From an uncultured Candidatus Saccharibacteria bacterium (GTDB lineage: Bacteria; Patescibacteriota; Minisyncoccia; Phycocordibacterales; UBA9973): a stretch of 64,000 nt of DNA. Positions 6,237 to 25,981 of this stretch are shown in pieces. The DNA lies in NCBI GenBank assembly GCA_964468315.1, contig CAYXTA010000001.1, positions 64,277 through 128,276 on the forward strand. Reading direction: 5' to 3'. The notes beneath the pieces are model-generated. The model had not been told where the DNA came from and did not search any database. It worked only from the letters and a program-made list of their open reading frames with translations. Position numbers and translations under genes: made by a program. Numbering within the stretch: the stretch's first letter is position 1; each line of letters begins with the position of its first letter.

Positions 6237-6240
6237 ATAT

Positions 6241-6741: not shown

Positions 6742-7462
6742 CAAAATAGTTGCTGGCGCATTTGCACTTAGCATTTTAGTTTCCCCGTTTGCTGGTTTTG
6801 CAGCTGAAACAAAAGTAAAAGGAGGATCTTTTTGCAATAAAATAGATGCCGTGACTGAAAAAATAAATACTCGCTTAGTAACCCACTTAGATAAGTTTGC
6901 TGTAAGGAAAAATACAAGAATCGCCAACATATCCAAGAGACGTGTCACTAGAGATGAAAACCGTGCTGACCATAGAGAAATTAAAGATATAAAAGTTGAT
7001 ACACGTATTAGTAATTTGACAGCAAAAGCTGATACAGAAGCTAAAAAATTAGCAGTTGTGTCTTTTGAGCAATCAGTAAATTCTGCTATATCACAAAGAC
7101 GTGCTACTGTGGATGAAGCAGTCCTAAAATTTAGAAATGGGGTAGACAACCTCATTACTACTAAATTTAATTCAATCGACAATAGTGCTGCAGTATTCAA
7201 GCAATCAGTAAATGAAGCGATTGTGGCAGCAAAGAATTCATGTGCAAATGGCACTGATAGCGAAATAGTTCGTACTACCATGAGAAATAGTATCAAAGTT
7301 GCTCAGGATAAGTTTAAAACAAATAGAATCGATACTTCGATAGAAGCAGACATAAATGCTCTTGTAGAAATAAAAAGACAATCGATAGATGGAGCGGTAG
7401 TAAAATTTAAAGCTGATATGGAGAAAGCAAAAGCAGATCTTAAAATTGCATTTGGGGCTTAA
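6725..7462 (+). CDS. Secreted alpha-helical protein with a signal peptide.
   Basis: Signal peptide MKTQYNKIVAGAFALSILVSPFAGFAAE. It overlaps the anti-sigma ORF by 17 nt, so it is probably in the same operon. The antisense ORF 6691..7296 is judged spurious. Confidence 0.5.
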   Translation: MKTQYNKIVAGAFALSILVSPFAGFAAETKVKGGSFCNKIDAVTEKINTRLVTHLDKFAVRKNTRIANISKRRVTRDENRADHREIKDIKVDTRISNLTAKADTEAKKLAVVSFEQSVNSAISQRRATVDEAVLKFRNGVDNLITTKFNSIDNSAAVFKQSVNEAIVAAKNSCANGTDSEIVRTTMRNSIKVAQDKFKTNRIDTSIEADINALVEIKRQSIDGAVVKFKADMEKAKADLKIAFGA

Positions 7463-7575
7463 GCTCAATGTGAGCCTTTAACAGATAGAACTAATTTGAT
7501 TCCTTACCCCACAAGGCGGTTTATTACCTAACTAAAATACCACATCGACCCTTCTCGTGTGTAAGTAAAAACCAA

Positions 7576-8049
7576 TTATTTCTTTAAGAGTTTCAGTTGT
7601 TTAATATCTTCGATATCTACTTCCCGGGATAATTTTGTTTTGTGTGCGATGAGAGCATCCAATTTCTCAATTGGAACTTTCTTTCCATATATTTCAATCA
7701 ATTCATAATCATCCAAATCTGAACCAGTCTTCTCCCAGATCTCTTTTTCTTTGTTGAATATTTTTGCTTCTATACCGGCAATATCAATTTCCTGTCCCTC
7801 GTATTGAAGCGTCATTAGATTCAAATCCCAATTTTCATCTTTATACCCATCAGGGCCATATACAATATACGGCTTAACTTCATTAGAAATTAGAGCTATG
7901 TCATTATCGTTCACTTCAATATCAATGTCAGCCAATTCACGATTTACACCATAGATACGAGCTGCAAAGCCACCTGAAATCTTGTAAGGAATTTTCATTT
8001 TTTCAAGAATTTCCGTTATCCATAAAAAAGCTTTTTCTGTATTTTTCAT
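7576..8049 (-). CDS. Nucleotidyltransferase-fold protein (Pol-beta-like NTase superfamily).
   Basis: SGGFAARIYGVNRELADIDIEV matches the hG[GS]-x(9-13)-DhD NTase signature. Confidence 0.5.
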   Translation of the reverse strand: MKNTEKAFLWITEILEKMKIPYKISGGFAARIYGVNRELADIDIEVNDNDIALISNEVKPYIVYGPDGYKDENWDLNLMTLQYEGQEIDIAGIEAKIFNKEKEIWEKTGSDLDDYELIEIYGKKVPIEKLDALIAHKTKLSREVDIEDIKQLKLLKK

Positions 8050-8210
8050 TTAGAATCCTAATAATATTGTTTAATATTTTTTAGTATACAATTTTAAACT
8101 TTCTTGTGCAATATTTAAATAGTGACAAAAGTGACACAAAATAAGATAAATAGTTACAGTTTTGTGTAATTATTTTTTAAGTTTAATATAATAAATTAAA
8201 TAATTTTTAT

Positions 8211-9116
8211 TTACCCAACTAATACACCACCAATACAGATTAAGATTATTGCAATAATCTTCCGTAATAGATTTTTAGTATCTAAGACCTCATTAAGATT
8301 AATTTTAAGTTTTTGTTGAATAATAAATACAATAAAAATTAGTACAAAAGGATAAAAAGATGACATGGATGATACTTGAGAAACAGAAGCTAAAGATAAA
8401 GCTTTCAAAAAGAAAAAAGAATTCCCGAAATCAGCAACCTTAGCAGGTATTGATATATATGTATATTTTAATAGTGTTGGCATATTTGGTTTTTCTACTT
8501 TTAAACATAAATGACTAAATATAATTACACAAGTTAAAAACAATACAGCCATACTCCAAACACTCACAAGAAAGCTTGTTTCTGATATTTTTAGATTTGT
8601 GTAAGAATTTTGAAAAATATACATTTCAGAACCATATAATATAGCATCAAAAATAAATATTCCGAAAATTAACATTTTTTGTTTTCTGCCACCAAAAATT
8701 CCTTTTTTAGCAAAAAATATAAGACCACCAGCTACTAACAAAAAGATACCTAAAATTGTAGATACATTAAAATTCTTACTAAGAATAAAAATATCGATTG
8801 GTAGAAATAATAAAGGTAAAAAATTACTCATTAAACTTGAAGATGTTACTTCTATCTTCTTAAGAAGATAAGTATAAAAAATAGCGCTTATTCCATAAAA
8901 TATTCCCAAAAAAATAATAGAAAAACTTAATGTTAATGTTGGAATCTTATTTTCTATTAGAATTCCTCCCAAAATACTAATAATTAAAAAAAGTACATTA
9001 CGAATCCATGTAGCGTTTAAATTGCCAATAGTTTTATTTTTAACTATATTTGCTTTATCTATCGTTTCTTCTAATGCTGCACTAAAAAGTGAACCAAAAC
9101 TATATATTTGCCACAT
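8211..9116 (-). CDS. Polytopic membrane protein (about 10 TM; possibly a DMT/EamA-like transporter).
   Basis: Hydrophobicity pattern only. Its first 7 codons (MWQIYSF) are duplicated at 11273-11300. Confidence 0.45.
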   Translation of the reverse strand: MWQIYSFGSLFSAALEETIDKANIVKNKTIGNLNATWIRNVLFLIISILGGILIENKIPTLTLSFSIIFLGIFYGISAIFYTYLLKKIEVTSSSLMSNFLPLLFLPIDIFILSKNFNVSTILGIFLLVAGGLIFFAKKGIFGGRKQKMLIFGIFIFDAILYGSEMYIFQNSYTNLKISETSFLVSVWSMAVLFLTCVIIFSHLCLKVEKPNMPTLLKYTYISIPAKVADFGNSFFFLKALSLASVSQVSSMSSFYPFVLIFIVFIIQQKLKINLNEVLDTKNLLRKIIAIILICIGGVLVG

Positions 9117-9155
9117 TTTATGATTATACCAAATAATTTGTGATATTATTAGTAT

Positions 9156-9719
9156 ATGTTAAGTATAAAAATACCAGATTCAAAAAGAAAAAAAGCACTT
9201 ATATTAATAGATCTCCAGCCCATATTTTTAAACAATAAAAATTCTTATGTTTTGAAAAACATGGAAAATCTTTTTAAAAATGAAGAATATTTTATGTATA
9301 TTAAAGCTACTTTTTCTGCTCCTAAGGGCTCTATTTGGGATAAACAGCTCGGATGGATTGTTGAAGAAAATAAAGATACAGATGTATTTCCAGCGAGGAT
9401 TTTAGAATTATTAAAAGATAAAAACTGCATCAATGTTAAAAAAGAAACAAAATCAATATTCAAAGGAACACCAGATATTTTACCGATCTTGAAAGAAAAT
9501 GGAATAGAAGAGATTAATATTATCGGCGTTGATACTAATGATTGTATTCTTGCTACAGCATATGAATCTTTCGACTATGGATTCTTTACATATATCATCG
9601 AAGAATGTGTACAATCCAGCGAAGGGGAGGAAATACATGAAGCAGGATTAAAAGTTTTAAGGCATGTGAATCTGACCAATAATTCTTGTATCGAGAAGAT
9701 TGGGTTTAAGGAAATATGA
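9156..9719 (+). CDS. Isochorismatase-family cysteine hydrolase (nicotinamidase PncA-like).
   Basis: ALILIDLQPIF (Asp) and IIGVDTNDCILATA (catalytic Cys) are typical of the family. The stop overlaps the next start (ATGA). Confidence 0.7.
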   Translation: MLSIKIPDSKRKKALILIDLQPIFLNNKNSYVLKNMENLFKNEEYFMYIKATFSAPKGSIWDKQLGWIVEENKDTDVFPARILELLKDKNCINVKKETKSIFKGTPDILPILKENGIEEINIIGVDTNDCILATAYESFDYGFFTYIIEECVQSSEGEEIHEAGLKVLRHVNLTNNSCIEKIGFKEI

Positions 9720-10060
9720 ACATGCAAACATATAATTTTTTATTTGTAATAGTTTTATCTACTGTTGTACTTACACGACTTTGGCTTTTATTGAAACCAA
9801 TATCTAGTCCTAGATTAAAAGGATTCAAGCTTCATCATTATATGTATGGTTTGATTATTGTTGGCATTTCTATTTTTCTTTCAAATATTATTTTATATGG
9901 AATTGGTTTTGGTTTAATAGTTGATGAATTACCACTTTTTTTAAGGTATAAAAATAATCATTTTCACTGGAAAGAATATAATTCAATTTATAGTAGATTG
10001 GGTGTTATTATTTGCCTTGTTTTGGTGTATATATTTAGAAAATATCTTATTTTATATTGA
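9716..10060 (+). CDS. Small membrane protein (3 TM).
   Basis: Translationally coupled to the isochorismatase-like gene. Hydrophobic. Confidence 0.4.
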   Translation: MNMQTYNFLFVIVLSTVVLTRLWLLLKPISSPRLKGFKLHHYMYGLIIVGISIFLSNIILYGIGFGLIVDELPLFLRYKNNHFHWKEYNSIYSRLGVIICLVLVYIFRKYLILY

Positions 10061-10101
10061 TTTGCTATAATTAAACCATTATTAATTTATAATAAAAATA
10101 T

Positions 10102-10608
10102 ATGACAATAGAAAATCCAATTGGAACGATAAAGAAGGCAGTACAAGCTTTTGCAGAACAAAAAGCAGAAAATGAATTTTTAGAAAAACCAGAAACTCGA
10201 CACTATGATGCTGTTTTTGAACAATTTCGAGCATTAAAAGAAGCTTCCCCTGAAGCACTTGAAACAGCTGTTAAGTTAGCTTCTAATTCTAAAGAAATAA
10301 AAGATGAATTAGGTTCAGAATTATTTATTCTTTATAAGAAAGTTGCAAATGAATTAGATGTAGAAATGAAAGATAAATGTATGATAGCTTTTAAACAATT
10401 AAAAGATGAAAATTTATCTAAAGATGATTTAGAAATAAAAGTAAAAGAATTATATATCAGAGTATCTAAACAAGTGGTAGATATGTTTAAAAATGATCCA
10501 CGCATTGTTTTGGCTTTTAATGGTAAAGAAGAACTTCTGGAAAAACTTTCAAAATTTATGGAAGAATCAGGAATTTCTTTAATAGATGCTATGTTTAAAT
10601 ATAAGTAA
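10102..10608 (+). CDS. Hypothetical helical protein.
   Basis: 168-aa ORF with a convergent terminator downstream. Confidence 0.45.
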   Translation: MTIENPIGTIKKAVQAFAEQKAENEFLEKPETRHYDAVFEQFRALKEASPEALETAVKLASNSKEIKDELGSELFILYKKVANELDVEMKDKCMIAFKQLKDENLSKDDLEIKVKELYIRVSKQVVDMFKNDPRIVLAFNGKEELLEKLSKFMEESGISLIDAMFKYK

Positions 10609-10792
10609 TTTAGATCAGCAGATTTTTAATATTTATTGGATCAATAATAATATTTAAATATAAAACAAAATTACTTCTGTTTTTTTTCTTGTATTGTTGC
10701 TGTCATTACTGACATGGCTTTCGTTTGGTGTTTGTATTTGTTTAGCATTTGTTGCTTTAATTTTGATTGGGTTGAAATAGATTATATATAAT

Positions 10793-10822
10793 TAAAAAAT
10801 CCCACAATGTGGGATTTTTTAA
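10793..10822. terminator. Bidirectional intrinsic terminator.
   Basis: AAAAAATCCCACAATGTGGGATTTTTT: a GC-containing hairpin flanked by an A-run and a T-run, between convergent genes. Confidence 0.6.
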
Positions 10823-10825
10823 TTA

Positions 10826-11185
10826 TTAAAGTAATTCTTTTAGTTCTTTGACTGCTTTTGAAGCATTGTTATATTTTGAAACTTCTCTATCATTTAAACC
10901 AGCTTCAATTATATCTAACTTGTCTTGAATTAATGATTTGAATTCTACATCACCAATACAATCTATTTGTTTTTTAATCGCCGAAAAGTAGTCATCCAAC
11001 ATACTATAATCATCTTTTATCATTGATTCGTATAAAGATTGTAGATTGACTGTTAGTTGTAATACACCAGACTTTTGCTCTGGTAGGATATGTTGTTTAA
11101 GAACTGTCGACAAATCTAATTTAGCCTTGTCTTCAATATCATGCTTTTCTTGTAAAGCTTTCATTCCATTTTCTATATTATTCAT
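10826..11185 (-). CDS. Hypothetical acidic helical protein.
   Basis: 119-aa ORF. Confidence 0.45.
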   Translation of the reverse strand: MNNIENGMKALQEKHDIEDKAKLDLSTVLKQHILPEQKSGVLQLTVNLQSLYESMIKDDYSMLDDYFSAIKKQIDCIGDVEFKSLIQDKLDIIEAGLNDREVSKYNNASKAVKELKELL

Positions 11186-11315
11186 TTATTTTCTTGTTAT
11201 TGTTTATAATCATTAGAGTTACCTCTAATTTACATATTATACTATAAATAAAAAATAGGGGAAAGTAAGCTTAGAAACTATATATTTGCCACATTTGGTA
11301 ATACTTCAAATGGCT

Positions 11316-11350
11316 CGAGCATTGACTTTTCACTTTTAATATGATATTAC
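11316..11350 (+). promoter_or_regulatory. Repeated promoter/operator-like box (copy 1 of 3): CATTGACTTTTCACTTTTAATATGATATTAC.
   Basis: Near-identical boxes at 12090-12125 and 13762-13797. TTGACT matches a sigma70 -35 hexamer, but the spacing to any -10 is ambiguous. Confidence 0.4.
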
Positions 11351-11385
11351 TTCATTAAGTAATCGCTCTTTTACATTCGTATTTG

Positions 11386-11426
11386 ATTGGTTTTCAGAGG
11401 AGATGCTGTCTCTTGTGGAAACCAAT
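11386..11426 (+). ncRNA. Conserved two-stem hairpin in the 5' leader (copy A) of the NADAR-HTH gene. A cis-regulatory RNA or an operator.
   Basis: ATTGGTTTTC CAGAGGAGATGCTGTCTCTTGTG GAAACCAAT. A 10-bp outer stem and a 6-bp inner stem. It ends 13 nt before the ATG and there is no SD. Confidence 0.5.
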
Positions 11427-11439
11427 TGAAACTAAAATA

Positions 11440-12012
11440 ATGGAAAATAAGAAAATTGACTCATTTAGCGAAGAGAATAGATTTCTCTCCAACTTCTGGC
11501 CCGTAGTCATTTGCTACGAGAATAGAATGTATCCAACAGTTGAACACGCGTATCAGGCTCAAAAGACAACTCAAGAGGAGAAACGACAAAAAGTTGCTGC
11601 TCTTATAACACCAGGCGAGGCTAAAAAATTTGGAGAAAATTTAAAGCGTCTTGGAAAAATACGTCCTGATTGGAGTGATGAATTGCGAATACAGCATATG
11701 ACAGCTTTGGTTGAAAGAAAGTTTTCTTTGAGTAATCTGGAATTGTCTCAAAAACTACTTGCAACTGGGGATATTGAACTTATTGAGGGTAATACCTGGG
11801 ACGATACCTTTTTCGGTGTTTGTAATGGGGAAGGAGAAAACCACTTGGGTAAAATCATTATGGCTACCAGAACAAAATTGAAGGCTGAAGTGCAAAAGAT
11901 AATGGATGCTTTAGTTAAGCATAATGGCAAGAGGCACGATGCTGCAAAGGATCTAAACATTGCGGAAAGGACACTGAGACTGCGCGAACAGGTATTTGGT
12001 ATTTTATATTGA
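11440..12012 (+). CDS. NADAR (YbiA/DUF1768) domain protein with a C-terminal Fis-type HTH.
   Basis: NADAR motifs: FLSNFWP, YPTVEHAYQAQK, LLATGDIELIEGNTWDDTFFGV. C-terminus: GKRHDAAKDLNIAERTLRLREQVFG, which resembles the Fis/NtrC HTH_8. I prefer the ATG at 11440 over the track start at 11383, which lies inside the hairpin. Confidence 0.7.
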   Translation: MENKKIDSFSEENRFLSNFWPVVICYENRMYPTVEHAYQAQKTTQEEKRQKVAALITPGEAKKFGENLKRLGKIRPDWSDELRIQHMTALVERKFSLSNLELSQKLLATGDIELIEGNTWDDTFFGVCNGEGENHLGKIIMATRTKLKAEVQKIMDALVKHNGKRHDAAKDLNIAERTLRLREQVFGILY

Positions 12013-12021
12013 GAAGCAATT

Positions 12022-12058
12022 AGGAGGTTAGAATATAATGTTCTAACCTCCTTTTTAT
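12022..12058 (+). terminator. Intrinsic terminator.
   Basis: Perfect 12-bp stem AGGAGGTTAGAA/TTCTAACCTCCT, followed by TTTTATTT. Confidence 0.6.
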
Positions 12059-12154
12059 TTACCCAAAATAACCATTCGAACATCTTCCCACGTTTAAAGT
12101 ATTGACTTTTAACTTTTAATATAGTACTTTAAGAAAAGTATTTGGTCTTTAACA

Positions 12155-12205
12155 TTGCATGTTTGATTGGTTACCAGAGAAGATTCTGTCTTTTGCGGTA
12201 ACCAA
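12155..12205 (+). ncRNA. Conserved two-stem hairpin (copy B) in the 5' leader of a membrane-protein gene.
   Basis: ATTGGTTACC AGAGAAGATTCTGTCTTTTGC GGTAACCAAT. The same architecture as copy A with compensatory substitutions. Confidence 0.5.
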
Positions 12206-12219
12206 TTAAAACTTAATAT

Positions 12220-12736
12220 TATGCTACAATTTGATTCACTTCTTCTAAAAAAATTCCAATCTTTTTCAGATTGGGTTTCAGTTACTTTTGGATTTAGTAA
12301 CTTCAAGGTTGCTAAATTGTTAATGATTTTATGTGTGATTGATACAGCCTGGGAGATTTATTTAAAAATCACCTACTGTAATATTGACCCAAAATCTTCT
12401 ATACCGGTGTTTAGTATCTTTTTTAGTTTACTATTCATTGTACTCTATGATTACACCATAAGGATTTGTGAGAAATTATCGGTTCTAAACTCAGGTACAA
12501 TCAATCCAGCTTACGTAATGTTACAACCTTGGCGATTCATGAAAATCGTTTTTATTTTCATGGGTATCACCCTATTAACAATAGATTTAACGGCGCATAT
12601 ATTTCTTACTCCATCTCCGTCTTTGAATCATGAGAAGGACCATATACATCACCTTACTGATATTTGTTACTTACTTTGGGATATATATAATCACAGCGTG
12701 TATTGTCTATTTAGTTTCTTGTTATACAAAACCTAA
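12220..12736 (+). CDS. Hypothetical membrane protein (about 4 TM).
   Basis: ATG at 12220, 14 nt after the hairpin. Hydrophobic segments. The track start at 12167 would overlap the structured element. Confidence 0.45.
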
Positions 12737-12842
12737 ACAGGAAAGTAAAATCAAGAAATGGATAAAAAGTATATCTTTTGTTTCCCAAGGTGTTTTGTCT
12801 CTTAAAGCACAAAAAATCTAACTTCTGAAGTCATAATCAATT

Positions 12843-12873
12843 AACCCACTCAATTTTGAGTGGGTTTTTTTAT
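12843..12873 (+). terminator. Intrinsic terminator.
   Basis: AACCCACTCAATTTTGAGTGGGTT followed by TTTTTTT. Confidence 0.6.
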
Positions 12874-12960
12874 TTACCCAAAATCACTATTCGAACATCA
12901 TCCCACGTTCGGAGCAAAATTTTATCATTTTTGAGTCTTTTCTGTTAAAATATATTTATT

Positions 12961-13740
12961 ATGCGAATCGAGAAAAAAGTTTGGCCGGAATATTTCCAAC
13001 AAATTGTAGATAATAAAAAGACCTTTGAATTAAGGTTAAATGATTTTGATATATGTGAGGGAGATACTCTTGTTCTTAATGAGTGGGATCCAGCTACCAA
13101 GGACTTCACAGGAAGAACACTTGAAAAAAAAGTAGGTTATGTTGGTAAGTGGAAAATAGATGATCTTACAAAGTTTTTACCAAGGCAAGACATTGAGGAT
13201 AAAGGCCTTCAAGTTATTTCTATGAAAGACCAAAAATCCCCAATGTCAAAACTAATAATAATCCGTGGAAACTCTGGCTCAGGAAAGAGCACTATCGCAA
13301 AAGAACTGAGAGCAAGATTAGGCAAAGAAAAAACCGCCCTCATTGAGCAGGATTATTTACGTCGCCACGTACTTGGAGAGATAGGCAAAAGTGGCGATGA
13401 TAATGTTGAATTGATAGAATTGACTACAAGATTTGCTTTAGAGAAAAACTATTTAACTATAGTTGATGGCATAATGCCGTCAGAATATTATGGTGCTATG
13501 TTAAAAAGGCTGAATGATATAAATCCTAAAAATACACATATTTTTTACTTAGATATATCCTTAGAAGAAACACTTAAAAGACATACTACCAAACCAAATC
13601 GTAATGATTTTGGTGAACCAGAAATACGAGAATGGTACAGAAATAAAGATACATTAAAACTAGAAAACGAGACTGTAATTGACGAGAAATCAACTTTAGA
13701 AGAAAGTATAAAATTTATATTGGAGGTTATTAAATATTAG
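12961..13740 (+). CDS. Fusion protein: an N-terminal ASCH/PUA-like domain and a C-terminal P-loop kinase (AAA_33/zeta-like).
   Basis: N-terminus KKTFELRLNDFDICEGDTLVLNEWDP...GRTLEKKVGYV (small beta-barrel ASCH/DUF3850-like). C-terminus Walker A IIIRGNSGSGKSTIAKEL and Walker B-like YLTIVDG. Confidence 0.55.
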   Translation: MRIEKKVWPEYFQQIVDNKKTFELRLNDFDICEGDTLVLNEWDPATKDFTGRTLEKKVGYVGKWKIDDLTKFLPRQDIEDKGLQVISMKDQKSPMSKLIIIRGNSGSGKSTIAKELRARLGKEKTALIEQDYLRRHVLGEIGKSGDDNVELIELTTRFALEKNYLTIVDGIMPSEYYGAMLKRLNDINPKNTHIFYLDISLEETLKRHTTKPNRNDFGEPEIREWYRNKDTLKLENETVIDEKSTLEESIKFILEVIKY

Positions 13741-13913
13741 GGAATACTTCAAATAGCTCGAGCATTGACTTTTATATTTTAATATAGTACTTTAAGAAAA
13801 GTATTCGGTCTTTAACATCCTTTGTTTACCTATTGAATTACTCACTTTGCTTTTCAATTTTGGAAGTCAATGTGGGTAATTCAATAATCTATAAACTTTA
13901 AATAATAAAAAAA

Positions 13914-14387
13914 ATGACAAAAGTTGTAAAACTCTTCGGACTTGATGATCCAAGTGTAGATAATAATATTAAAATAATTGCTTTAACAGGAAAATGTATC
14001 GAATGGGCGATGGGTTTTCTGGGAGGGGATGATGATCCACTTACAGGTCTTATTATAGGAGATAAAGATTTCGATGACACGATTCTTCAAAAATTAAACA
14101 TATTTGAGACTGAGGAAGAAAAAATTAAAACAATCCTTCAAGATTTAAATAAACCGGATTCTGAATTTGAAGGAAAACTTATGAGCCTGGGTGAACTTAG
14201 TGGAAGAGAAGAGGATACCCATATTGAGATAATTGCTCTAGCAGCAAAAAATCTGGAATGGGAAATTGGTGTTCTCGCAGGAGAAGATGAACCAATCACA
14301 GGACTTATCCTCGGAGAAAAGGAATTTGTTAAAGCAACTCTTCGAAAATTGAATAAATTTGATTTGCTTTTTAAGGAGCAGAAATAA
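13914..14387 (+). CDS. Hypothetical protein made of two tandem homologous ~65-aa repeats.
   Basis: IKIIALTGKCIEWAMGFLGGDDDPLTGLIIGDKDFDDTILQKLN is repeated as IEIIALAAKNLEWEIGVLAGEDEPITGLILGEKEFVKATLRKLN. Confidence 0.45.
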   Translation: MTKVVKLFGLDDPSVDNNIKIIALTGKCIEWAMGFLGGDDDPLTGLIIGDKDFDDTILQKLNIFETEEEKIKTILQDLNKPDSEFEGKLMSLGELSGREEDTHIEIIALAAKNLEWEIGVLAGEDEPITGLILGEKEFVKATLRKLNKFDLLFKEQK

Positions 14388-14410
14388 GTATAAACCATAA
14401 AAATAAAACA

Positions 14411-14716
14411 ATGTTAGACCTTTCAAAAAAAGAAGAGAAAACTCTTCGAGAAATAACAGAAAAATACGATGCTAAGTTCGAATTATCTTTAGACGAAGAT
14501 GGCAAAAACTTTTTATGTAAGATTGTGGCAGGGGATGGCCAATCTTTTCATTATAAAGATAAAACAAAGAAAAGTAATGGAGTCCTAATGAAAGCAATAA
14601 AATCTCTTAACCCAGAAGAAGCTATGAAAAAAGCAATTGAATTCTTTTCAACCGTTGAGTATTTTACTTGGAACCTTTATGAACCTAATTGTGTAGATAT
14701 GCATGATGATTGTTAA
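14411..14716 (+). CDS. Small hypothetical protein.
   Basis: 101-aa ORF with a terminator immediately downstream. Confidence 0.4.
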   Translation: MLDLSKKEEKTLREITEKYDAKFELSLDEDGKNFLCKIVAGDGQSFHYKDKTKKSNGVLMKAIKSLNPEEAMKKAIEFFSTVEYFTWNLYEPNCVDMHDDC

Positions 14717-14734
14717 TTAATTGATTTTTTATAC

Positions 14735-14768
14735 AAAAAACCGTTTCGTAAAGATACGGTTTTTTTTA
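14735..14768. terminator. Bidirectional intrinsic terminator.
   Basis: AAAAAACCGTTTCGTAAAGATACGGTTTTTTTT between convergent genes. Confidence 0.55.
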
Positions 14769-14847
14769 TTTTCCATCTAAAATGTCCCGTATCAGAGGTT
14801 TCCTAAAATATAAAAACGCACTGATATAATCAATGCGTTTTTGTTTT

Positions 14848-15450
14848 TTAAATTATCTCAACTTTCAAATTATTTAAAACAAAGGCTTCGTTTCGAAAAC
14901 AGACCATCCAGCGGTTATCCTTGTTGTAATACCTTACAAATTTTATCATATTAACATCTGTTATATATAAATTTGTAGGTATACAAAAATTCATGTATTC
15001 AACGAAATCTTCTTCAATTTCAGAAACAACTTTTGTTTTACATGTTCCCAAGATAGGAATAATCAAATTATGTTCTGTAACACACGAGTCGGGACCTTTG
15101 CAGGTAAAAGAAATTTTTAAGCTTTTACCTTTGAAAATAGCAGACTCTTCAATTTTGTTCAGTATAAAATACCAAGTACCAGAACGGTCGTCTTGTGAGC
15201 AGTACCATTTAGCTAACCACCCAGCTTGTCTGTATTTCCTGAGAACTTCATTTACTACTCTTTCATCGAGGCCCGATGAGATTCCTCCTTGCTTGTTACT
15301 ATAAGGGAAAGGTTTAGGCTCAACTTTTAGTTCTTTACCTTTAACATAGTATTTTACTATGTAATTGTCGATTTGTTTTTCATAAAGAGCGATCATACTC
15401 TTTTGATTATCGGTGAAAGTTTCATCAATGGATCCTGTTTTAATGGCCAT
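14848..15450 (-). CDS. Hypothetical Cys-containing protein.
   Basis: 200-aa ORF. The antisense ORF 14993..15304 is judged spurious. Confidence 0.45.
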   Translation of the reverse strand: MAIKTGSIDETFTDNQKSMIALYEKQIDNYIVKYYVKGKELKVEPKPFPYSNKQGGISSGLDERVVNEVLRKYRQAGWLAKWYCSQDDRSGTWYFILNKIEESAIFKGKSLKISFTCKGPDSCVTEHNLIIPILGTCKTKVVSEIEEDFVEYMNFCIPTNLYITDVNMIKFVRYYNKDNRWMVCFRNEAFVLNNLKVEII

Positions 15451-15709
15451 AGTTTCTATAGATTTAAGGGTTTATATTTATTTTTTTTAAAAGGACTTTA
15501 GTTATACGCAATATATCATATTATTATAAATATGTCAAATATACCTCATCTTTATATAGAAATTTTGTTTACCAAAAACGCTATTCCAATATTCTTCTTT
15601 GGTTAAAGTATTATTGACTATTATTTATTTTTGTGTTAAATTAAAACTAAATTTGTTTGGGCGTCTTGCCCGTTAAATAACTTAATTTAACCTTTAAAAA
15701 CTACATATC

Positions 15710-16180
15710 ATGGCAAGTATACTAATTCTTGAAGAGCTTGAACAAGCTTTACAGCTCTGGGAAGACACTAATCTTTGGGCAGAAGCAAAATTCCAATTAT
15801 TCCTACAGGGTAAAATTGAGGAAGATGAAAATTATGGTAAACCGCTCATTGGTACAGAAATCGATGATGCTGGATTCTTACAAAGAGGGATTAAAAATTT
15901 TAACTCTCTTCGTAGTGCTTTGAATAATCATATTGAGCTTGATCCAACTCAATTTCTTCCGAGGGTCACGACTGAAAAAAGACCGACACACACAACTCTA
16001 GATTTCTCTCGTATGTTTGTTGTGCGAGGGATCACTTTTTCCCCATTTTTTCTTTCGAAATGGATGAATTACAAAAAGGTGTTCAGTGTAAAAACCCCAG
16101 ACATTATTCAGCCTGTTTCTATTCTTGAAAAGAATTATCTGAGCAAAGTGCCTTACAGTTCTTTTATTATTAGGTTTTAA
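15710..16180 (+). CDS. Hypothetical protein with locally higher GC.
   Basis: 156-aa ORF whose codon usage is visibly GC-richer than its neighbours. Confidence 0.4.
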   Translation: MASILILEELEQALQLWEDTNLWAEAKFQLFLQGKIEEDENYGKPLIGTEIDDAGFLQRGIKNFNSLRSALNNHIELDPTQFLPRVTTEKRPTHTTLDFSRMFVVRGITFSPFFLSKWMNYKKVFSVKTPDIIQPVSILEKNYLSKVPYSSFIIRF

Positions 16181-16198
16181 GAACCTTTAAAGATTGAT

Positions 16199-17011
16199 TT
16201 GATAGAGGATAAAAATGCTGATCATGTGCATCAAATCGAGGAAAAGTTAGTTATGGTTACTACTGATGGTGTCTATATGGATATTTTCTGTTTAGGGCCA
16301 TCAAAAAGTATAACTGATTTTTCCTTAACATCACAGGTAAGGCATGATTTGGTAGAAAATCTTTCTAAAAAAAGCCAGACCCAAAAGTTTGTAAATCAGG
16401 TAAATTCTGTTAACTTAGGGTTACCTTTTGTCAGTTTAACGATTGAAGTTACTTCGGGCTTGTCAGTAGTTCAAAAATATAATGAAGGTGATGATACTTT
16501 TGTTACAACTTTTGACTCTAACAGAAATCCTGGAATCTTTGATTCTAAAATTAATGGAAAAACTGAACAGTCGCAAGCATATGTACCCGGTGACTATCCT
16601 CATGCGATGTCTGAAATACTCCATCTTCACCGATTTTTTATCGATCTGGTAAATGGTTTTTGCAAAGTGGTTTCTGAATTACCAGCAAGACAAACGGTTA
16701 TTACTGAAAGTCCTGCTTCGCTGCCTGAAACTTTAAGGCAGGGAAAACAAGAAACTAAATCCTGGTTTTCAGTCGAAATTACTGATGTCAGAGATGTGAG
16801 TGGTGAAGAAAATCCCAGTGTTCATTTTGCTTCACATACAGGTGGTGAAAAATCAGCTCATTGGAGAAGGGGACACTGGAGAATTTACATGAACAAAGAT
16901 GGGTCTTTCAAAAAAGAAGTATGGATTTCAGAGGCACTGATTCGGGAAGACAAACTGGAAACTGAAAACCTTCAAGGTAGCGCTACACTGCTAAAAAGTG
17001 AAAAAAGTTGA
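16199..17011 (+). CDS. Hypothetical protein with locally higher GC; TTG start per the ORF track.
   Basis: 270-aa ORF followed by a strong terminator. Confidence 0.4.
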   Translation: MIEDKNADHVHQIEEKLVMVTTDGVYMDIFCLGPSKSITDFSLTSQVRHDLVENLSKKSQTQKFVNQVNSVNLGLPFVSLTIEVTSGLSVVQKYNEGDDTFVTTFDSNRNPGIFDSKINGKTEQSQAYVPGDYPHAMSEILHLHRFFIDLVNGFCKVVSELPARQTVITESPASLPETLRQGKQETKSWFSVEITDVRDVSGEENPSVHFASHTGGEKSAHWRRGHWRIYMNKDGSFKKEVWISEALIREDKLETENLQGSATLLKSEKS

Positions 17012-17053
17012 CATGATTTTGCTAAATACTAAATTACCCAGAGCAATCTGGTA

Positions 17054-17080
17054 CCCCGATCTAACAAGATCGGGGTTTTT
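17054..17080 (+). terminator. Intrinsic terminator.
   Basis: CCCCGATCTAACAAGATCGGGG followed by TTTTT. Confidence 0.65.
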
Positions 17081-17173
17081 ATTTACCAAAAATCGTAATT
17101 TTAACATAATCCTACGTTTGAAGTCTTTAAAATATACCTTAATAGAAGTTCAAACTTGTGATATTATTGGTGT

Positions 17174-17655
17174 ATGAAAAAGTCATTAACTTTGTGTATG
17201 ATTCTTAAAGATAACCAGATACTCCTAGGTATGAAAAAAAGAGGATTTGGTGTTGGTAGATGGAATGGGTTTGGTGGAAAAGTTGATGAAGGTGAAACAA
17301 TAGAACAAGGAGCTATTCGTGAATTAAAAGAGGAGACTGGAATAGATGCTGTAAATATTAAAAAAGTTGGTATTTTGGATTTTTCATTTCAAAATGATAA
17401 TAAAATTTTAGAAGTTAATGTTTTTAAAGTTATAGATTTTATAGGAGAACCTACAGAAAGTGAAGAGATGAAACCACAATGGTTTTTTTTGATAAAATAC
17501 CATTTAGTCAAATGTGGACAGATGATATTCAATGGTTTCCATTTCTATTAAATAATAAATTATTTAGAGGAGAATTTTTATTTGATAGACCTTCTGATTC
17601 TGAATATTCTGCAAAAATAATTACTCAAAAACTAAATGAAGTTTCAAATTTTTAA
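17174..17655 (+). pseudogene. MutT/NUDT1(MTH1)-like Nudix hydrolase interrupted by a frameshift in a T8 homopolymer (17483-17490).
   Basis: Nudix box GGKVDEGETIEQGAIRELKEETGI in frame 1 ending at 17551. The adjacent frame continues DKIPFSQMWTDDIQWFPFLLNNKLFRGEFLF...QKLNEVSNF to 17655. From memory this matches the MTH1 C-terminus ([27 protein letters not shown]). Confidence 0.55.
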
Positions 17656-17691
17656 TATTTCCATTCGAATATTTCCCTAAGTTTTTCTGTC

Positions 17692-18273
17692 TTGATAGAA
17701 TTTCAAATTTTCTGTTATACTTATTTTATGGAAGGTCATTTTAATACAGAAAAAAATAAATCTGAACAATTAGAAATAATAAGAAAAGAGGTTGAAAAAA
17801 TTGTCGATAAACTCGGATTAGGAATCGATCAGGATATAAAAGAAACAGTGGCTATTTTTCGTGCAATGGATTTTCCAACTTCATCATCATGTTCTGGTCA
17901 TACTAACGATATGGGTGATGAAGGGTACGGATTGCCATATGTTGAAGTATACGCTCCTGCTCCCAAAGGATGGATTGAAGATAAAACGAATAAAGAATTA
18001 AGAGAAAAATGGAAACAAGAAAACGTTAAATATAGAAAAAAAATTATACCTCTTTTAGAGGATTTTAATAAAAAAAGAACTTCCGCGAATGACGTTCTTT
18101 TACACATAAGCGATATAGGTTCTTTTAGTGCTTTTAGAATTGAGAGTATTGGGGTAGAGGAGACAAGAAAATTAAAGTCTGAAGAAGAGTTGGTAATTAA
18201 AATAAAACAATTTCAAGAAGAAATGAAGTTTTTTACAGAGTTTTTGAAAGATAAATTCTTAAAAGGAAAATAG
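17692..18273 (+). CDS. Hypothetical protein.
   Basis: 193-aa ORF. The real start may be the Met at about 17725 (MEGHFNTEK). Confidence 0.45.
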   Translation: MIEFQIFCYTYFMEGHFNTEKNKSEQLEIIRKEVEKIVDKLGLGIDQDIKETVAIFRAMDFPTSSSCSGHTNDMGDEGYGLPYVEVYAPAPKGWIEDKTNKELREKWKQENVKYRKKIIPLLEDFNKKRTSANDVLLHISDIGSFSAFRIESIGVEETRKLKSEEELVIKIKQFQEEMKFFTEFLKDKFLKGK

Positions 18274-18316
18274 AATGAACGCTGTTATTTTTATATGATA
18301 AAATACAATATAATAT

Positions 18317-18748
18317 ATGGAAAGATTTAAATTAAATGTAGCTGTTTACTTGTTATTAATAAAAGGTGATAAAATACTTCTTTTGCGAAGATTTAATACT
18401 GGTTGGCAAGATGGAAATTACAGTCTTCCTGCTGGACATTTAGAAATGGGTGAAACTCCGACTTCTGGAATGATGCGAGAAGGTTTAGAGGAAATAGGAA
18501 TTACGTTACACAAAGAAGATTTAGAAATGGTACATACTATGCATAGAATACATGGATATTATATTGATTTATTTTTTACTGCTAAAAAATGGGAAGGAGA
18601 GATCGTAAATAAAGAATTAAATAAATGTGATGATCTAAATTGGTTTCCACTTGAAGATTTACCAATAAATATAGTACCTTCAGTAAAATCTGCCATTGAA
18701 CAATATAAAAAAGGTGTTCATTTTTCAGAGTTTGAAATGGAGGGGTAA
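18317..18748 (+). CDS. Nudix hydrolase.
   Basis: Nudix box GHLEMGETPTSGMMREGLEEIGI (Gx5Ex7REuxEExGu). Confidence 0.75.
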   Translation: MERFKLNVAVYLLLIKGDKILLLRRFNTGWQDGNYSLPAGHLEMGETPTSGMMREGLEEIGITLHKEDLEMVHTMHRIHGYYIDLFFTAKKWEGEIVNKELNKCDDLNWFPLEDLPINIVPSVKSAIEQYKKGVHFSEFEMEG

Positions 18749-18964
18749 TATATGCACATAGAATTCTTGCATTAGAAATATTAATGCAATATACTTTTAG
18801 TGGCGAATATATATATGGAATCAGCCCTAAGGGGACTATACTCTGCAAAAACAATAATTTTTCATTAACCGCTTAAGGTTAATACAACAATAATAAAAGA
18901 CAAAATCTACGGAAGTCAATGAAAGCAGAGCAAAAAGAATATTAGCGAATAAACACGCTTTTTA

Positions 18965-19012
18965 GGCTTTTTGCTCAGTTTGAAGTTAAGACTTCTTCTC
19001 GAGCAAAAAGCC
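18965..19012. repeat. Perfect 12-bp inverted repeat GGCTTTTTGCTC...GAGCAAAAAGCC with a 24-nt loop.
   Basis: Seen directly in the sequence. It lies at the left edge of the phage-like module, about 100 bp upstream of the ParB-MTase gene. It is not followed by a T-run. Confidence 0.5.
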
Positions 19013-19114
19013 AAGTACAAACTTGGTTTTCTTGTTGTATGGGCAACTTTTAAACAAAATATTCTTTCAACAAAATCTCCCAAAATTATTAAGTAATAAA
19101 TAAGGAATTTTAGT

Positions 19115-20398
19115 ATGAATAAAAATACTCAATTAATTTGGCGTACAGAAGTACGTAAAGTAGAAAGTCTTAAAACATGGAGTAAAAATCCTCGTAAATT
19201 AACAAAATCAGCATTTAAAACCTTAGTGGAAAGGATTGAGCAACGCGGTTTTCACGCAGTACTTGTAATTGATACAGATGACACGATTCTTTCAGGTAAT
19301 CAGAGAAAAAATGCACTTATACATTTAGGAATTACTGAAGTAACAGTGTTGGTTCCAAACCGTAAACTTACAGAAGATGAAAGAAAAAAGATTGCTTTAG
19401 AATCTAATTTAAATGATGGGGAATGGGATTTTTCAAAATTAAAATCTTTTAACATGGATCTGCTGAGTGATATAGGTTTCCCTGATTCAGATCTTTCAAA
19501 TATCTGGTCGGAAAATCTTGAAGCTGAAGATGATAACTTTGATGAAAAACTTGAACTGTCAAAAATTAAAGTTCCAAAAACTAAACTTGGAGATCTAATT
19601 ATTATGGGAAATCATAGATTAATTTGTGGAGATTCAACGGATCCTAAAGTTCTTAAAAAGTTATTCGGAAACGAGAAAGCATCTATGATATATTCTGATC
19701 CGATTTACAATATTAAAATAAATTATAGTAAAGGGATTGGAGGTAAACAAAAATATGGTGGAAATGTAAATGACAATCGTAGCTTTGAAGAATACAAAGA
19801 ATTTCTAAATAAAAGTTTAATTAGTGCACTTGCTGTATCAAAAGATGACCTTCATGTTTTTTACTGGAATGATCAGACAGGGATAGGAATTGTACAAGAT
19901 TTATATCGTGAACTTGGTATTGAAAACAAGCGAGTATGTTTGTGGATTAAAAATGGACAGAATCCTGTGCCGAGTGTGGCGTTTAATAAATGCTATGAAC
20001 CATGCATATATGGTGTAAAAGGACGACCATATATTTCTTCAAATTTACAAAACCTCAATGAGGTCATGAATAAAGAAATGACAACTGGTAATAGTCTTAT
20101 GGAAGAAACACTTGATCATCTTGATATTTGGACAGTGAAAAGATTGTCAGGTAAAGATTACGAACATGCTACAAGTAAACCTCCAAAACTTCACGAAAAA
20201 GCTATTCGTCGTTGCACTAAGCCTGGTGATATTATTCTAGATTCATTTTCAGGTTCTTCCAGCACACTTATTAGTGCTGAACAATTAAAACGTCGAGTAT
20301 ATGCTGTCGAGCTAGAAGAAGTATTTTGTGATTTGGCGATTCGCAGGTACGAAAAATTAACAGGTAATAAAGCAAAAATAATCCATGAAAAAAAATAA
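19115..20398 (+). CDS. ParB-like nuclease domain fused to a DNA N6-adenine/N4-cytosine methyltransferase (phage/plasmid type).
   Basis: N-terminal ParB/Srx-like region (GFHAVLVIDTDDTILSGNQRKNA). MTase motif IV SDPIYNI (DPPY-like) lies before motif I ILDSFSGSSST, the beta-class order. Confidence 0.7.
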   Translation: MNKNTQLIWRTEVRKVESLKTWSKNPRKLTKSAFKTLVERIEQRGFHAVLVIDTDDTILSGNQRKNALIHLGITEVTVLVPNRKLTEDERKKIALESNLNDGEWDFSKLKSFNMDLLSDIGFPDSDLSNIWSENLEAEDDNFDEKLELSKIKVPKTKLGDLIIMGNHRLICGDSTDPKVLKKLFGNEKASMIYSDPIYNIKINYSKGIGGKQKYGGNVNDNRSFEEYKEFLNKSLISALAVSKDDLHVFYWNDQTGIGIVQDLYRELGIENKRVCLWIKNGQNPVPSVAFNKCYEPCIYGVKGRPYISSNLQNLNEVMNKEMTTGNSLMEETLDHLDIWTVKRLSGKDYEHATSKPPKLHEKAIRRCTKPGDIILDSFSGSSSTLISAEQLKRRVYAVELEEVFCDLAIRRYEKLTGNKAKIIHEKK

Positions 20399-25978: not shown

Positions 25979-25981
25979 AAA

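Follow-up and report, generated by a model that had tools for sequence, protein, structure and literature searches.

The DNA considered here is a window of 64 kb (the whole stretch analysed) on contig CAYXTA010000001.1 of a bacterium from the candidate phyla radiation (CPR), and the subject of this work is its segment from 7576 to 18748, together with the repeats that divide it. The segment contains six open reading frames (ORFs) encoding a nucleotidyltransferase (NTase), an isochorismatase-like hydrolase, a NADAR protein with a helix-turn-helix (HTH) tail, a fusion of an ASCH domain with a P-loop kinase and two Nudix hydrolases, which a first-pass annotation had taken for an island of NAD/ADP-ribose-handling families. 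All six are in place and belong to the superfamilies named, with a weak match in the case of the NTase. What had been missed are the repeats that lie between the genes, as well as the conserved partners of the isochorismatase, a transporter and a small membrane protein. Enzyme functions were assigned from comparison with sequence and structure databases, covering the 64-kb window and a set of related loci that are referred to by L numbers. The segment is probably the cargo of a mosaic, horizontally acquired region in a Nomurabacteria/Paceibacterota (CPR) genome, the cassettes of which would act independently and do not constitute a single NAD/ADP-ribose pathway.

Genes and intergenic repeats between 11.3 and 18.8 kb

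Among the cassettes, the NADAR-HTH protein (11440-12012, plus strand) appears to be the best-supported candidate for an ADP-ribose-related function. Its NADAR domain is recognized by Pfam at an E value of 2.5e-20 (73.8 bits versus a gathering score of 35.1), and a PDB search aligns the protein with E. coli YbiA (4.8e-13), placing Glu116, in the last strand, within ELIEGN (LIE) opposite LVE of YbiA. The C-terminal tail is of the Fis type (HTH_8, 5e-4, just under the gathering score) and is recorded for several homologues, the NADAR and HTH fusion being rare (about 12 of 5484 homologues). In the last strand, Glu is typical of the YbiA family, Asp of the DarT1-linked (BC4488) family and His of the T4 gp30.3 type, and all tested NADARs take ADP-ribose off guanine in vitro (PMC11125620). 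The equivalog for the riboflavin-intermediate N-glycosidase (TIGR02464) is not reached, at 60.9 bits versus a cut-off of 73.7. Furthermore, the gene is an orphan and not part of a DarT1-NADAR system, as no ADP-ribosyltransferase (ART) domain is found in its neighbours, which vary from one homologous locus to another (they differ in L166, L167 and L168), and the residue is Glu and not Asp.

The NADAR-HTH protein would act on ADP-ribosylated guanine in DNA and release the ADP-ribose; its HTH would serve as a tether to DNA or in autoregulation, and the protein could be a means of counter-defence for the element or a repair enzyme. Orphan NADARs are deployed by phages against DarT1 (PMC11257639). 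Like these factors and the YbiA-family NADARs (PMC11257639, PMC11125620, PMC11543638), the window protein is a stand-alone YbiA-type Glu NADAR on a mobile element and has no toxin partner; in addition, it has a strong PHROG match (phrog_1017, 5.8e-38) and relatives on 10 IMG/VR contigs, which match in the NADAR domain only. It differs from the phage proteins by its rare Fis-type HTH and by having Glu instead of the His of the T4 gp30.3 type, and no DarT is known from its host. For the role of a DNA-targeted guanine de-ADP-ribosylase this fusion is an obvious candidate.

The next cassette encodes a predicted membrane protein of 171 aa (12221-12736, plus strand; the gene is called in L001), which has no Pfam or PHROG match and shares its leader with the NADAR gene. 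It is followed by a fusion of an ASCH-like (DUF3850) domain and a PRK06762-type P-loop kinase (12961-13740, plus strand), supported by Pfam (DUF3850/ASCH 4e-17, AAA_33 6e-7) and by the NCBIfam model PRK06762.2-2 (142 bits versus a cut-off of 140), an equivalog titled 'hypothetical protein', and devoid of any NAD link. Its substrate is probably a nucleic acid or a nucleotide. Phage records match the ASCH half or the kinase half, never the fusion, and no relative was found in IMG/VR.

Three ORFs with no assigned function and no family matches, orf157, orf101 and orf200 (the last on the minus strand), occupy 13914-15450 on mixed strands and travel together with a 433-aa gene; in L101 they are 92%, 92% and 66% identical, respectively, and their order is kept. 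Orf157 (13914-14387) is itself an internal tandem duplication of a unit of about 70 aa (IKIIALTGKCIEWAMGFLGGDDDPLTGLIIGDKDF / IEIIALAAKNLEWEIGVLAGEDEPITGLILGEKEF). The stretch 15710-17011 (plus strand), which the first-pass annotation had not recognized as a single gene, encodes this 433-aa protein and contains a premature TAA codon at 16178-16180. The same codon reads CAA in L008 (SRR25018341), where it is the sole difference in 7195 nt, and the gene is intact in other samples. It belongs to a small family (8 homologues), a distant member of which is flanked by a uracil-DNA glycosylase (UDG) gene and a Nudix gene in L102-L105. The protein has no assigned function and no IMG/VR relative, and its AlphaFold2 model (pLDDT 67) finds no fold match in PDB or BFVD. 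A likeness to AcrVA2 (PF26125), flagged weakly or without marking in precomputed data, was not reproduced by a fresh hmmscan (E<=1), and PADLOC, PHROGs and a PDB sequence search proved negative as well.

Nudix 1 (17174-17655, plus strand) is an MTH1/NUDT1-type protein, a family of oxidised purine deoxynucleoside triphosphatases (dNTPases), with matches to Pfam NUDIX (2.7e-14 over 17174-17551) and to vertebrate MTH1 in the PDB (1.3e-34). The frameshift noted for it in the first-pass annotation is real: a T8 run at 17483-17490, found also in the independent assembly L008, shifts the frame, and the C-terminal third reads on in the other frame to 17655. The pocket residues are kept on both sides of the shift, Asn33 in RWNGFGG in frame and Trp117, Asp119 and Asp120 in MWTDDIQWF in the shifted frame, and an intact protein can be read only if the frame shifts by -1 or the run gains one T. 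Judged from these motifs, Nudix 1 is of the type that sanitises oxidised purine dNTPs and is not an ADP-ribose enzyme; no match to it was found in 50,697 phage records. Slippage rescue of homopolymer frameshifts is known in AT-rich endosymbionts. A full-length MTH1-like protein could likewise arise here by -1 ribosomal frameshifting or by an extra U from polymerase slippage on T8, failing which the gene would be a pseudogene. The MTH1-like and the 433-aa genes are accordingly inactivated or slippage-dependent in this strain, as is expected of dispensable cargo.

Orf181 (17728-18273, plus strand; called in L008) has no family match and no assigned function, and it precedes Nudix 2 (18317-18748, plus strand), a small MutT-like protein of the NUDIX_4 type (Pfam NUDIX 4.5e-18). 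The Nudix box GX5EX7REUXEEXGU is present in both Nudix proteins, at G40-I62 in Nudix 2. Among the NCBIfam models MutT scores best with Nudix 2 (48 bits versus 148), ahead of NAD+ diphosphatase (31 versus 158) and NudE (28 versus 169); its best PDB matches (1e-9 to 1e-10) are of mixed specificity, and PADLOC returns PDC-S07 at 1.4e-11. Dunn and colleagues reportedly proposed in 1999 that a Pro about 16 residues after the Nudix box marks ADP-ribose pyrophosphatases (ADPRases) and the motif SQPWPFPxS NADH pyrophosphatases. On inspection of the sequence, Nudix 2 has no Pro within 20 residues past the box and no SQPWPFPxS, hence no ADPRase signature.

The cassettes are separated by a recurrent set of intergenic elements, all read here on the plus strand. 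The first copy of this regulatory module (11293-11439; repeats D2 and D4) comprises a variant of the junction motif (..TTCAAATGGCTCGAGCA), the promoter-like box CATTGACTTTT-N-TTTTAATAT, the inverted repeat ATTACTTCATTAAGTAAT and a leader hairpin (11387-11425), and it ends at the NADAR start codon. Between the NADAR and the 171-aa genes (12022-12220; nhmmer E 3.6e-5), a terminator (12022-12052) is followed by the junction motif D1 (12052-12099) and by the second copy of promoter and leader (12100-12216), and downstream of the 171-aa gene (12843-12916; nhmmer E 1.9e-9) a terminator (12843-12866) is joined to another D1 copy (12867-12916). The interval 13736-13913 (repeats D2, D3 and I7) contains a junction-motif variant, the third promoter copy and a different hairpin (13831-13886), and forms the left breakpoint of the block shared with L101, while 17053-17118 contains a terminator and a degenerate junction motif (a 77% copy of D1).

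The junction motif is about 28 nt long, (T)TYCGAACATCnTCCCAMGTTCGGAGCA, and occurs twice in the window versus 0 expected. Together with its variants (..TTCAAAT.GCTCGAGCA, at 11293-11322 and 13736-13765) and its degenerate copies (17076-17118, ~15562-15605 and 17656-17683), it stands at the cassette boundaries that can be read, at 11293, 12052, 12867, 13736, ~15562, 17076 and 17656. The promoter-like box, found at 11320, 12100 and 13763, occurs four times in the window versus 0.07 expected, and an operator-like inverted repeat lies directly past it. Terminator-like sites in 7.4-19.2 kb number 18 versus 4.4 +/- 2.1 expected; strong ones stand after the NADAR, the 171-aa membrane and the 433-aa genes, each of them followed by TTTTTATTTACC and the junction motif. 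Terminators, promoter-like boxes and the junction segment mark off the genes of 11.3-18.8 kb as transcription units, and each cassette is inferred to act on its own.

Three of the window cassettes have the promoter box in common and two the structured leader. The leader hairpin, TTGGTTnnCAGAGnAG-loop-CTnTTGnGnnAACCAA, heads unrelated genes and ends 11-20 nt before start codons that have no Shine-Dalgarno sequence (14-15 nt ahead of the ATG of NADAR-HTH and of the 171-aa gene). Copies lie at 11364-11439 and 12144-12220 in the window, at 5086-5167, 10276-10357 and 11133-11212 in L119, at 203-285 and 2446-2524 in L166, and at 7440-7522 and 7924-8003 in L167. Analysis of these 9 copies in 4 loci by RNAalifold gave 22 predicted pairs, 5 of which show compensatory changes, with several G-U pairs conserved, and this covariation favours an RNA structure. 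Rfam contains no family for the junction motif or the leader (no match at E<=1 in 13 loci), and a match to RF02278 in the window is sub-threshold (26.6 bits versus 50) and probably due to chance. As an RNA hairpin the junction motif itself finds no support, since variant copies break the stem with no compensation, and it was rejected, on inspection, as an ECF-sigma promoter or a LexA (Cheo) box, since the spacing in AAC-N10-GTT departs from the 16-17 or 4 required, respectively.

Cassette exchange between strains and arrays in other genomes

Related strains differ by cassette exchanges whose breakpoints lie in the repeated junction/promoter segment. The locus L101 has 88% DNA identity to the window over 13760-17032 only, that is, over orf157, orf101, orf200 and the 433-aa gene; its flanks carry different genes, and motif copies stand at its junctions. 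In L166, the NADAR-HTH protein is 96% identical and DNA identity (94%) is confined to 11317-12112, past which there come, in L166, genes for a 168-aa protein, an NTase homologue (44%), another Nudix protein than in the window and a 177-aa protein. In both comparisons homology starts at the boundary between GAGCA and TTGACTTTT; the L166 match ends inside the next copy of the junction/-35 segment, and that of L101 about 20 nt past the stop codon of the 433-aa gene, ahead of the terminator and motif. In addition, L108, L127 and L138 have sequence in common on one side of the motif only, and a systematic search for such one-sided flanks, in which most contigs were short, returned one clean pair. 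Assemblies of the window's own strain from short reads are interrupted at 12892-12916, position 12916 being the last of L001 and L004 and 12892 the first of L008. Over 5288-20086, L001-L009 are 99.96-100% identical to the window although they come from at least 5 unrelated sequencing projects (SRR25018341-3, ERR4405440, GCA_020050275.1, SRR11088444, SRR35185575), which indicates one widespread clone.

An exact-pattern scan of JGI metagenomes found the motif on 55 contigs, about 50 of them low in GC, with an invariant core (ttCGAACATCnTCCCACGTTCGGAGc) and unrelated flanks. With a motif profile, each array yields 2-8 copies, invariably in the orientation of the genes: in L147, six at E<1e-3 and two weaker ones fall within 4 kb, every pair enclosing a single ORF, and there are eight copies in L122, four in L166, three in L167 and three in L139. 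In 1.2 Mb of CPR loci centred on core genes the profile has no match at E<1, and the motif was not found in IMG/VR. Its sequence was also absent from the literature searched, which held nothing that links integrons with cassette arrays of Patescibacteria. Among 150 neighbouring genes of the arrays, NUDIX is the commonest family (6), followed by AAA_18/33 kinases (3) and by IMS, peptidase S51, NYN, glyoxalase, methyltransferase and GNAT genes (2 each), and overall the cargo consists of diverse small enzymes, including HAD proteins, and of toxin-antitoxin genes. No recurrent recombinase occurs among these 150 neighbours, the array heads having been checked by eye only.

Several arrays are headed by a tRNA-Asn(GTT) gene (3612-3687 in L119, 206-280 in L158 and 7325-7397 in L167), and in L119 the flank downstream of the tRNA 3' end is the one found past the motif in L108, L127 and L138. 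The likeness of the motif to the tRNA-Asn sequence from the T-loop to the 3' end is restricted to blocks (TTCGAA/TCCT/CCC/GGAGC). The motif was accordingly not accepted as a true tRNA fragment, an origin for which this blockwise likeness is suggestive but unproven.

A tentative explanation of these arrays is an integron-like, site-specific cassette system, in which the ~28-nt motif would be the recombination site, the recombinase would act in trans and tRNA-Asn would be the primary insertion site. If so, which is itself doubtful, it would refine the mechanism by which the cassettes of the acquired region were assembled and would not contradict the anatomy of that region. The motif stands on the same strand at essentially every gene boundary in L147 and L122, it is invariant over contigs of 31-43% GC with unrelated flanks while being absent from the 1.2 Mb of core DNA scanned, and the strain breakpoints fall in the motif/-35 segment. 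The tRNA-Asn genes at the heads of L119, L158 and L167, together with the flank that L119 has in common with L108, L127 and L138, point in the same direction. Chromosomal integrons typically carry toxin-antitoxin, GNAT, glyoxalase, Nudix and isochorismatase-type genes, and the cargo seen here is similar. Furthermore, same-orientation single-ORF cassettes with a conserved site were found in L147, L122, L119, L166, L167 and in the window at 11.3-18.8 kb.

Against such a system, no recombinase recurs among the 150 neighbours or, by eye only, near the array heads, and neither an IntI-type tyrosine recombinase nor any other match to the Phage_integrase family is present among the window ORFs scanned or the top families of the neighbours. 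At ~28 nt, the motif is far shorter than attC and lacks its R''/L''-L'/R' layout, having only the AAC...GTT cores in common with it, and variant copies break a potential 7-bp stem with no compensation. The motif often lies directly upstream of a -35 box, where a transcription-factor site fits equally well, and homologous recombination between the 40-150-nt repeats would give the same breakpoints. Finally, no circular intermediates are known.

The arrays resemble sedentary chromosomal integrons in their mostly single-ORF, same-orientation cassettes, their conserved site-like repeat, their cargo of small enzymes and toxin-antitoxin genes and their strain-variable order. They differ from them in that no IntI or attI is seen, in the length of the motif (~28 nt versus 50-150 nt for attC with its R''/L''/L'/R' boxes), in the promoter, leader and terminator that many cassettes have of their own, in the CPR host and in the tRNA-Asn gene at the head of some arrays. 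A second likeness is to the PeSLs that Arbiol and colleagues reportedly described in 2010 as 'mobile regulatory cassettes' of the hyperplastic regions of T4-type phages. There, too, repeated units of an early-type promoter and a stem-loop/terminator flank small ORFs, auxiliary or with no known function, and offer patches of homology for modular shuffling among related genomes, whereas the units considered here lie in a bacterial chromosome or phage remnant and have an extra, non-palindromic ~28-nt motif that extends across many taxa, as well as a structured leader.

It is conceivable, though less likely than not, that Paceibacteria (CPR) carry an undescribed cassette-array system, made of one-orientation, mostly single-gene cassettes that are bounded by a ~28-nt tRNA-Asn-like site and served by a recombinase in trans, the window holding at 11.3-18.8 kb one such array captured beside a serine-integrase element. 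In that system many cassettes would come with a promoter of their own and with a structured 5' leader that is conserved. If the motif is a recombination site, it would mean an integron-like gene-capture system in a major uncultivated lineage, and if it is a regulator-binding site, a widespread regulon of accessory genes. The junction repeats may be a new signal for gene shuffling. CPR genomes are tiny and their mobile DNA is little known, and the strain comparisons are direct evidence of autonomous cassettes being reshuffled between near-identical strains at conserved junctions.

The flanking blocks and their genomic setting

The mosaic region that contains the cassettes continues on both sides. 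To the left, at 7.6-11.2 kb, the central gene encodes an isochorismatase-superfamily cysteine hydrolase (9156-9719, plus strand; Pfam Isochorismatase E 4.8e-16), which belongs to a subfamily of about 183 aa from CPR and DPANN organisms and is not a canonical nicotinamidase. The subfamily comprises 87 homologues, 40-59% identical, in Nomurabacteria, Paceibacterota, Nanoarchaeota and Micrarchaeota. In an alignment with what we take to be the reference sequence of M. tuberculosis PncA, the catalytic triad is kept, D19, K96 and C130 corresponding to D8, K96 and C138 (with an alignment to PDB 1ILW as further evidence), and the segment with the metal ligands (Asp49, His51, His57 and His71, M. tuberculosis numbering) is deleted across the whole subfamily. 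The metal site of PncA coordinates the pyridine nitrogen; a lone His retained by some members is replaced by Ser in the window protein, which has just two His residues, both in the C-terminal ~30 residues. The PncA model of NCBIfam (NF008623) gives 18 bits versus a cut-off of 174, no other equivalog is reached, and in a PDB search solved nicotinamidases align only to the C-terminal half of the protein.

The hydrolase is accompanied by an EamA-family transporter (8211-9116, minus strand; Pfam EamA 5e-8), which also adjoins its homologue in L163 and L164 and is replaced in that place by an MFS transporter in L169, and by a small membrane protein of 112-114 aa (9722-10060, plus strand), the third member of the module, with homologues 43-44% identical in the isochorismatase loci of L163 and L164. 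Around the isochorismatase homologues no linked pncB, nadD/E or pnuC was found, the neighbours being EamA/MFS, small membrane protein, GNAT, NT5C and methyltransferase genes. An NNMT-like methyltransferase beside the homologue in L170 was considered as a link to nicotinamide but was not confirmed, a PDB search returning only generic methyltransferases. The gene thus has the isochorismatase fold and the Asp-Lys-Cys triad in common with PncA and its NAD salvage clusters, and differs from them in the lack of the metal Asp/His/His site and of PncB, NadD and NadE neighbours and in its transporter partners. The pairing of hydrolase and transporter recurs in CPR genomes, and the hydrolase subfamily alone is common to CPR and DPANN. 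This metal-site-less hydrolase, EamA/MFS transporter and small membrane protein may form a module for the uptake and hydrolysis of a metabolite in episymbionts, which makes it a candidate metabolite-scavenging unit in these host-dependent cells.

At the outer end of the block lies the small NTase (7576-8049, minus strand), which resembles LnuA, ANT(2'') and TM1012 and has no NAD link. Its profile matches are weak: Pfam Aminoglyc_resit, an aminoglycoside-2''-adenylyltransferase family, is sub-threshold (20.2 bits versus a cut-off of 21, E 7e-4), NCBIfam LnuA gives 2e-4, and the PDB entries of LnuA and TM1012 give 0.015 and 0.025. The homologue in L166, 44% identical, is a motif-flanked cassette. 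At the inner end, two ORFs with no Pfam or PHROG match and no assigned function, orf168 (plus strand) and orf119 (minus strand), occupy 10102-11185, and a homologue of a fragment of orf168 is found in L106 near a relative of the 433-aa gene.

To the right of the cassettes, 19115-22230 (plus strand) encodes a ParB-N6/N4 DNA methylase (phrog_498, 3.9e-81), TerS and a TerL of the Mu-like type (phrog_38, 1e-77); the latter shows 24-28% identity to genes that phage records, one of a Mannheimia phage among them, annotate as TerL, and has one distant IMG/VR relative only. The interval 22290-25434 contains, on mixed strands and recognized through Pfam, PHROG and Rfam, a DUF4352 protein (minus strand) with weaker matches to Sie-like superinfection-exclusion families, a LOOT RNA (22912-23030, minus strand), orf218 and a large serine integrase (24091-25434, plus strand). 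A complete prophage is not present, as Pfam and PHROGs give no portal, capsid, tail or lysis match in the whole window. The first-pass annotation had placed the island next to a prophage, which holds in so far as TerS, TerL, the ParB-methylase and the serine integrase are concerned, but with no portal, capsid or tail gene in 64 kb the phage-derived part is a remnant or a satellite-like element. The LOOT RNA (RF03000) scores 90.5 bits in the window and 82 bits in L167 (3413-3532), where a NADAR-HTH array again lies beside a serine recombinase and the RNA, and in both cases it stands divergently upstream of the large serine recombinase, which suggests that this orphan RNA family is linked with serine-integrase elements. 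The name 'LOOT motif' was not found in the literature searched.

The core genome resumes beyond a tRNA-Glu(CUC). RmuC (30197-31261) is 84-87% identical to proteins of Candidatus Nomurabacteria metagenome-assembled genomes, dozens of Paceibacterota genomes have RmuC-ExoX-YqeY-VTT-MYG1-Obg-GatB as a syntenic block, and 36.8-64 kb carries further core genes (ATP synthase, GluRS, FBA, RF, FtsW, MurG, MraY). In a comparison with 80 related genomes synteny stops at the tRNA-Glu, which in the closest relative, L011, precedes FtsI, FtsL, RsmH and MraZ, and the window proteins of 0.1-29.3 kb are not found in the flanks of the relatives, save for two isolated weak matches. The claim that the island is accessory, mosaic and horizontally assembled is borne out, since the tRNA-Glu of relatives lacks the content of 7.5-29.3 kb, the cassettes have differing neighbours, and integrase and terminase genes flank them; likewise, no conserved core synteny was found for 7.5-29.3 kb, in agreement with the view that it is not core metabolism.

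Readings of the region

The acquired region would extend over about 7.5-25.4 kb, perhaps up to the tRNA-Glu at 29.4 kb, and would consist of three parts. The first (7.6-11.2 kb) is the hydrolase/transporter module with the LnuA-like NTase; in the relative L164, the isochorismatase, EamA and small membrane protein genes ride on an element whose serine integrase is 55% identical to that of the window. The second (11.3-18.8 kb) comprises the cassettes of NADAR-HTH, the membrane protein, the ASCH-kinase, the block from orf157 to the 433-aa gene, the MTH1-like Nudix and orf181/Nudix 2, most of which have a promoter-like box and/or a terminator of their own. The third (19.1-25.4 kb) would be the stump of a temperate phage or phage-like element, the virion genes of which were lost or never present. 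The cassettes probably act in the house-cleaning or modification of nucleotides, nucleic acids or small molecules: MTH1 would hydrolyse oxidised dNTPs, and for the NTase and the kinase the target of modification would be a small molecule or the end of a nucleic acid. As such, the island is ordinary, the cargo of a decayed integrative phage-like element. It agrees with a degraded prophage or phage-derived island bearing moron cargo in the serine integrase, terminases, ParB-methylase and DUF4352 protein that lie beside autonomous promoter-gene-terminator units, and in its pseudogenes, but differs in the lack of a structural or lysis module, in a cargo as large as the phage part and in repeats that also occur in non-phage settings (L101, L119, L147).

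Several observations weigh against this account. The block from orf157 to the 433-aa gene is found in L101 beside ordinary host genes (FUR, YibE_F, peptidase M3), and the cassette array may be a chromosomal hypervariable region that merely abuts a phage remnant. The junction motif is not clear in a profile scan of 7.6-11.2 kb, a block that may represent a separate acquisition, and the NADAR gene, an NTase homologue and a Nudix gene occur together again in L166, so that some functional coupling is possible. The locus is 100% identical in several samples, hence stable on short timescales, and GC content does not set the region apart. Furthermore, no empty insertion site was recovered for the element, long repeats are not left by the att sites of serine integrases, and evidence for an att site from a split gene had to be rejected, since orf190, which overlaps the 3' end of the integrase gene, is complete (its homologues have 175-225 aa).

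A coherent set for the sanitation of DNA and nucleotide damage, protecting the DNA of the element or the host, is an unlikely alternative to a collection of independent cassettes. In such a set, the MTH1-like and MutT-like Nudix proteins would clean dNTPs, NADAR-HTH would remove ADP-ribose from guanine in DNA, the ASCH-kinase would process nucleic-acid ends, and the 433-aa protein would partner a glycosylase or a Nudix enzyme. The substrate-binding residues of MTH1 are indeed retained (N33, W117, D119 and D120, the last three in MWTDD), the HTH fusion directs NADAR toward DNA, and in L102-L105 the distant homologue of the 433-aa gene has a UDG gene and a Nudix gene as its neighbours. In addition, L167 has a Ham1/ITPase gene in its NADAR-HTH array, DinB/IMS genes are found close to motif arrays, and Nudix is the most frequent family in the arrays. 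However, the same arrays hold glyoxalase, GNAT, SDR, HAD, GATase, toxin-antitoxin and membrane proteins with no link to DNA, two genes of the set are broken in this strain, the neighbours of the cassettes are not conserved, and no role is known for the ASCH-kinase or the 433-aa protein.

Even less probable, and to be given little credence, is the toolkit of the first-pass annotation, that is, a horizontally assembled module for NAD+ salvage, ADP-ribose processing and counter-defence in which nicotinamidase, an ADP-ribose Nudix, NADAR, NTase and kinase would draw on a common NAD-derived pool. NADAR is a true ADP-ribose hydrolase family that phages use against DarT1 (PMC11257639, PMC11125620), and L166 again holds NADAR-HTH, the NTase homologue and a Nudix gene. 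The JGI label of the isochorismatase is 'nicotinamidase-related amidase', a generic COG name, and its homologue in L170 adjoins an NT5C nucleotidase and a methyltransferase flagged as NNMT-family, a flag that was not confirmed. As to the premise that these families repeatedly co-occur in NAD modules, a survey of viral NAD-ADP-ribose systems reports that NADAR and Nudix occur together in DNA viruses above chance, but ASCH, isochorismatase, nicotinamidase and MutT are absent from its text (PMC9503650).

Subfamily classification leaves an ADP-ribose link to one of the six genes, NADAR-HTH. The isochorismatase lacks the metal site that defines nicotinamidases, fails the PncA model and has transporters, not PncB or NadD/E, as its conserved partners; Nudix 1 is a frameshifted MTH1-type dNTPase, Nudix 2 has no signature of ADPRases or NADH pyrophosphatases, and neither the NTase nor the ASCH-kinase is linked to NAD. 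Moreover, the neighbours of each gene vary between strains, and no NAD-consuming or salvage domain (ART, Sir2, TIR, macro, PncB, NadD/E, Nampt or PnuC) is present in the window ORFs scanned against Pfam. The first-pass annotation had itself named a dNTP-only Nudix or a true isochorismatase as findings that would speak against the toolkit, and the former describes the MTH1-like protein, while the latter applies in part, in that the hydrolase is not PncA-like. By these standards the toolkit is largely refuted already: the region is a mosaic accessory island and not a NAD/ADP-ribose toolkit, and it is unsuited as evidence for NAD-centred conflict systems in CPR bacteria.

That the segment is conserved core metabolism of the lineage, and no island at all, can practically be dismissed, as the uniform GC content and the identity of the locus in several samples are set against island proteins that do not lie beside RmuC/tRNA-Glu in 80 relatives, a nearest isochorismatase homologue of 59% identity versus 84-87% for RmuC, a cassette order that varies among strains, and adjacent integrase and terminase genes.

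Two groups of genes border the acquired region. Between the integrase and the tRNA-Glu, 25406-29264 (minus strand) holds three co-directional genes, encoding a 190-aa protein, an 808-aa protein with no family match and a DUF4365 (restriction-endonuclease-like) protein; these may form a defence-type module, and PADLOC returns no more than a weak match to an Argonaute-associated restriction endonuclease for the DUF4365 protein. Directly to the left of the island, 5712-7462 encodes an extracytoplasmic function (ECF)-type sigma factor, a putative anti-sigma membrane protein and a secreted coiled-coil protein, and a possible degenerate junction motif follows the last gene of this group at ~7535-7567.

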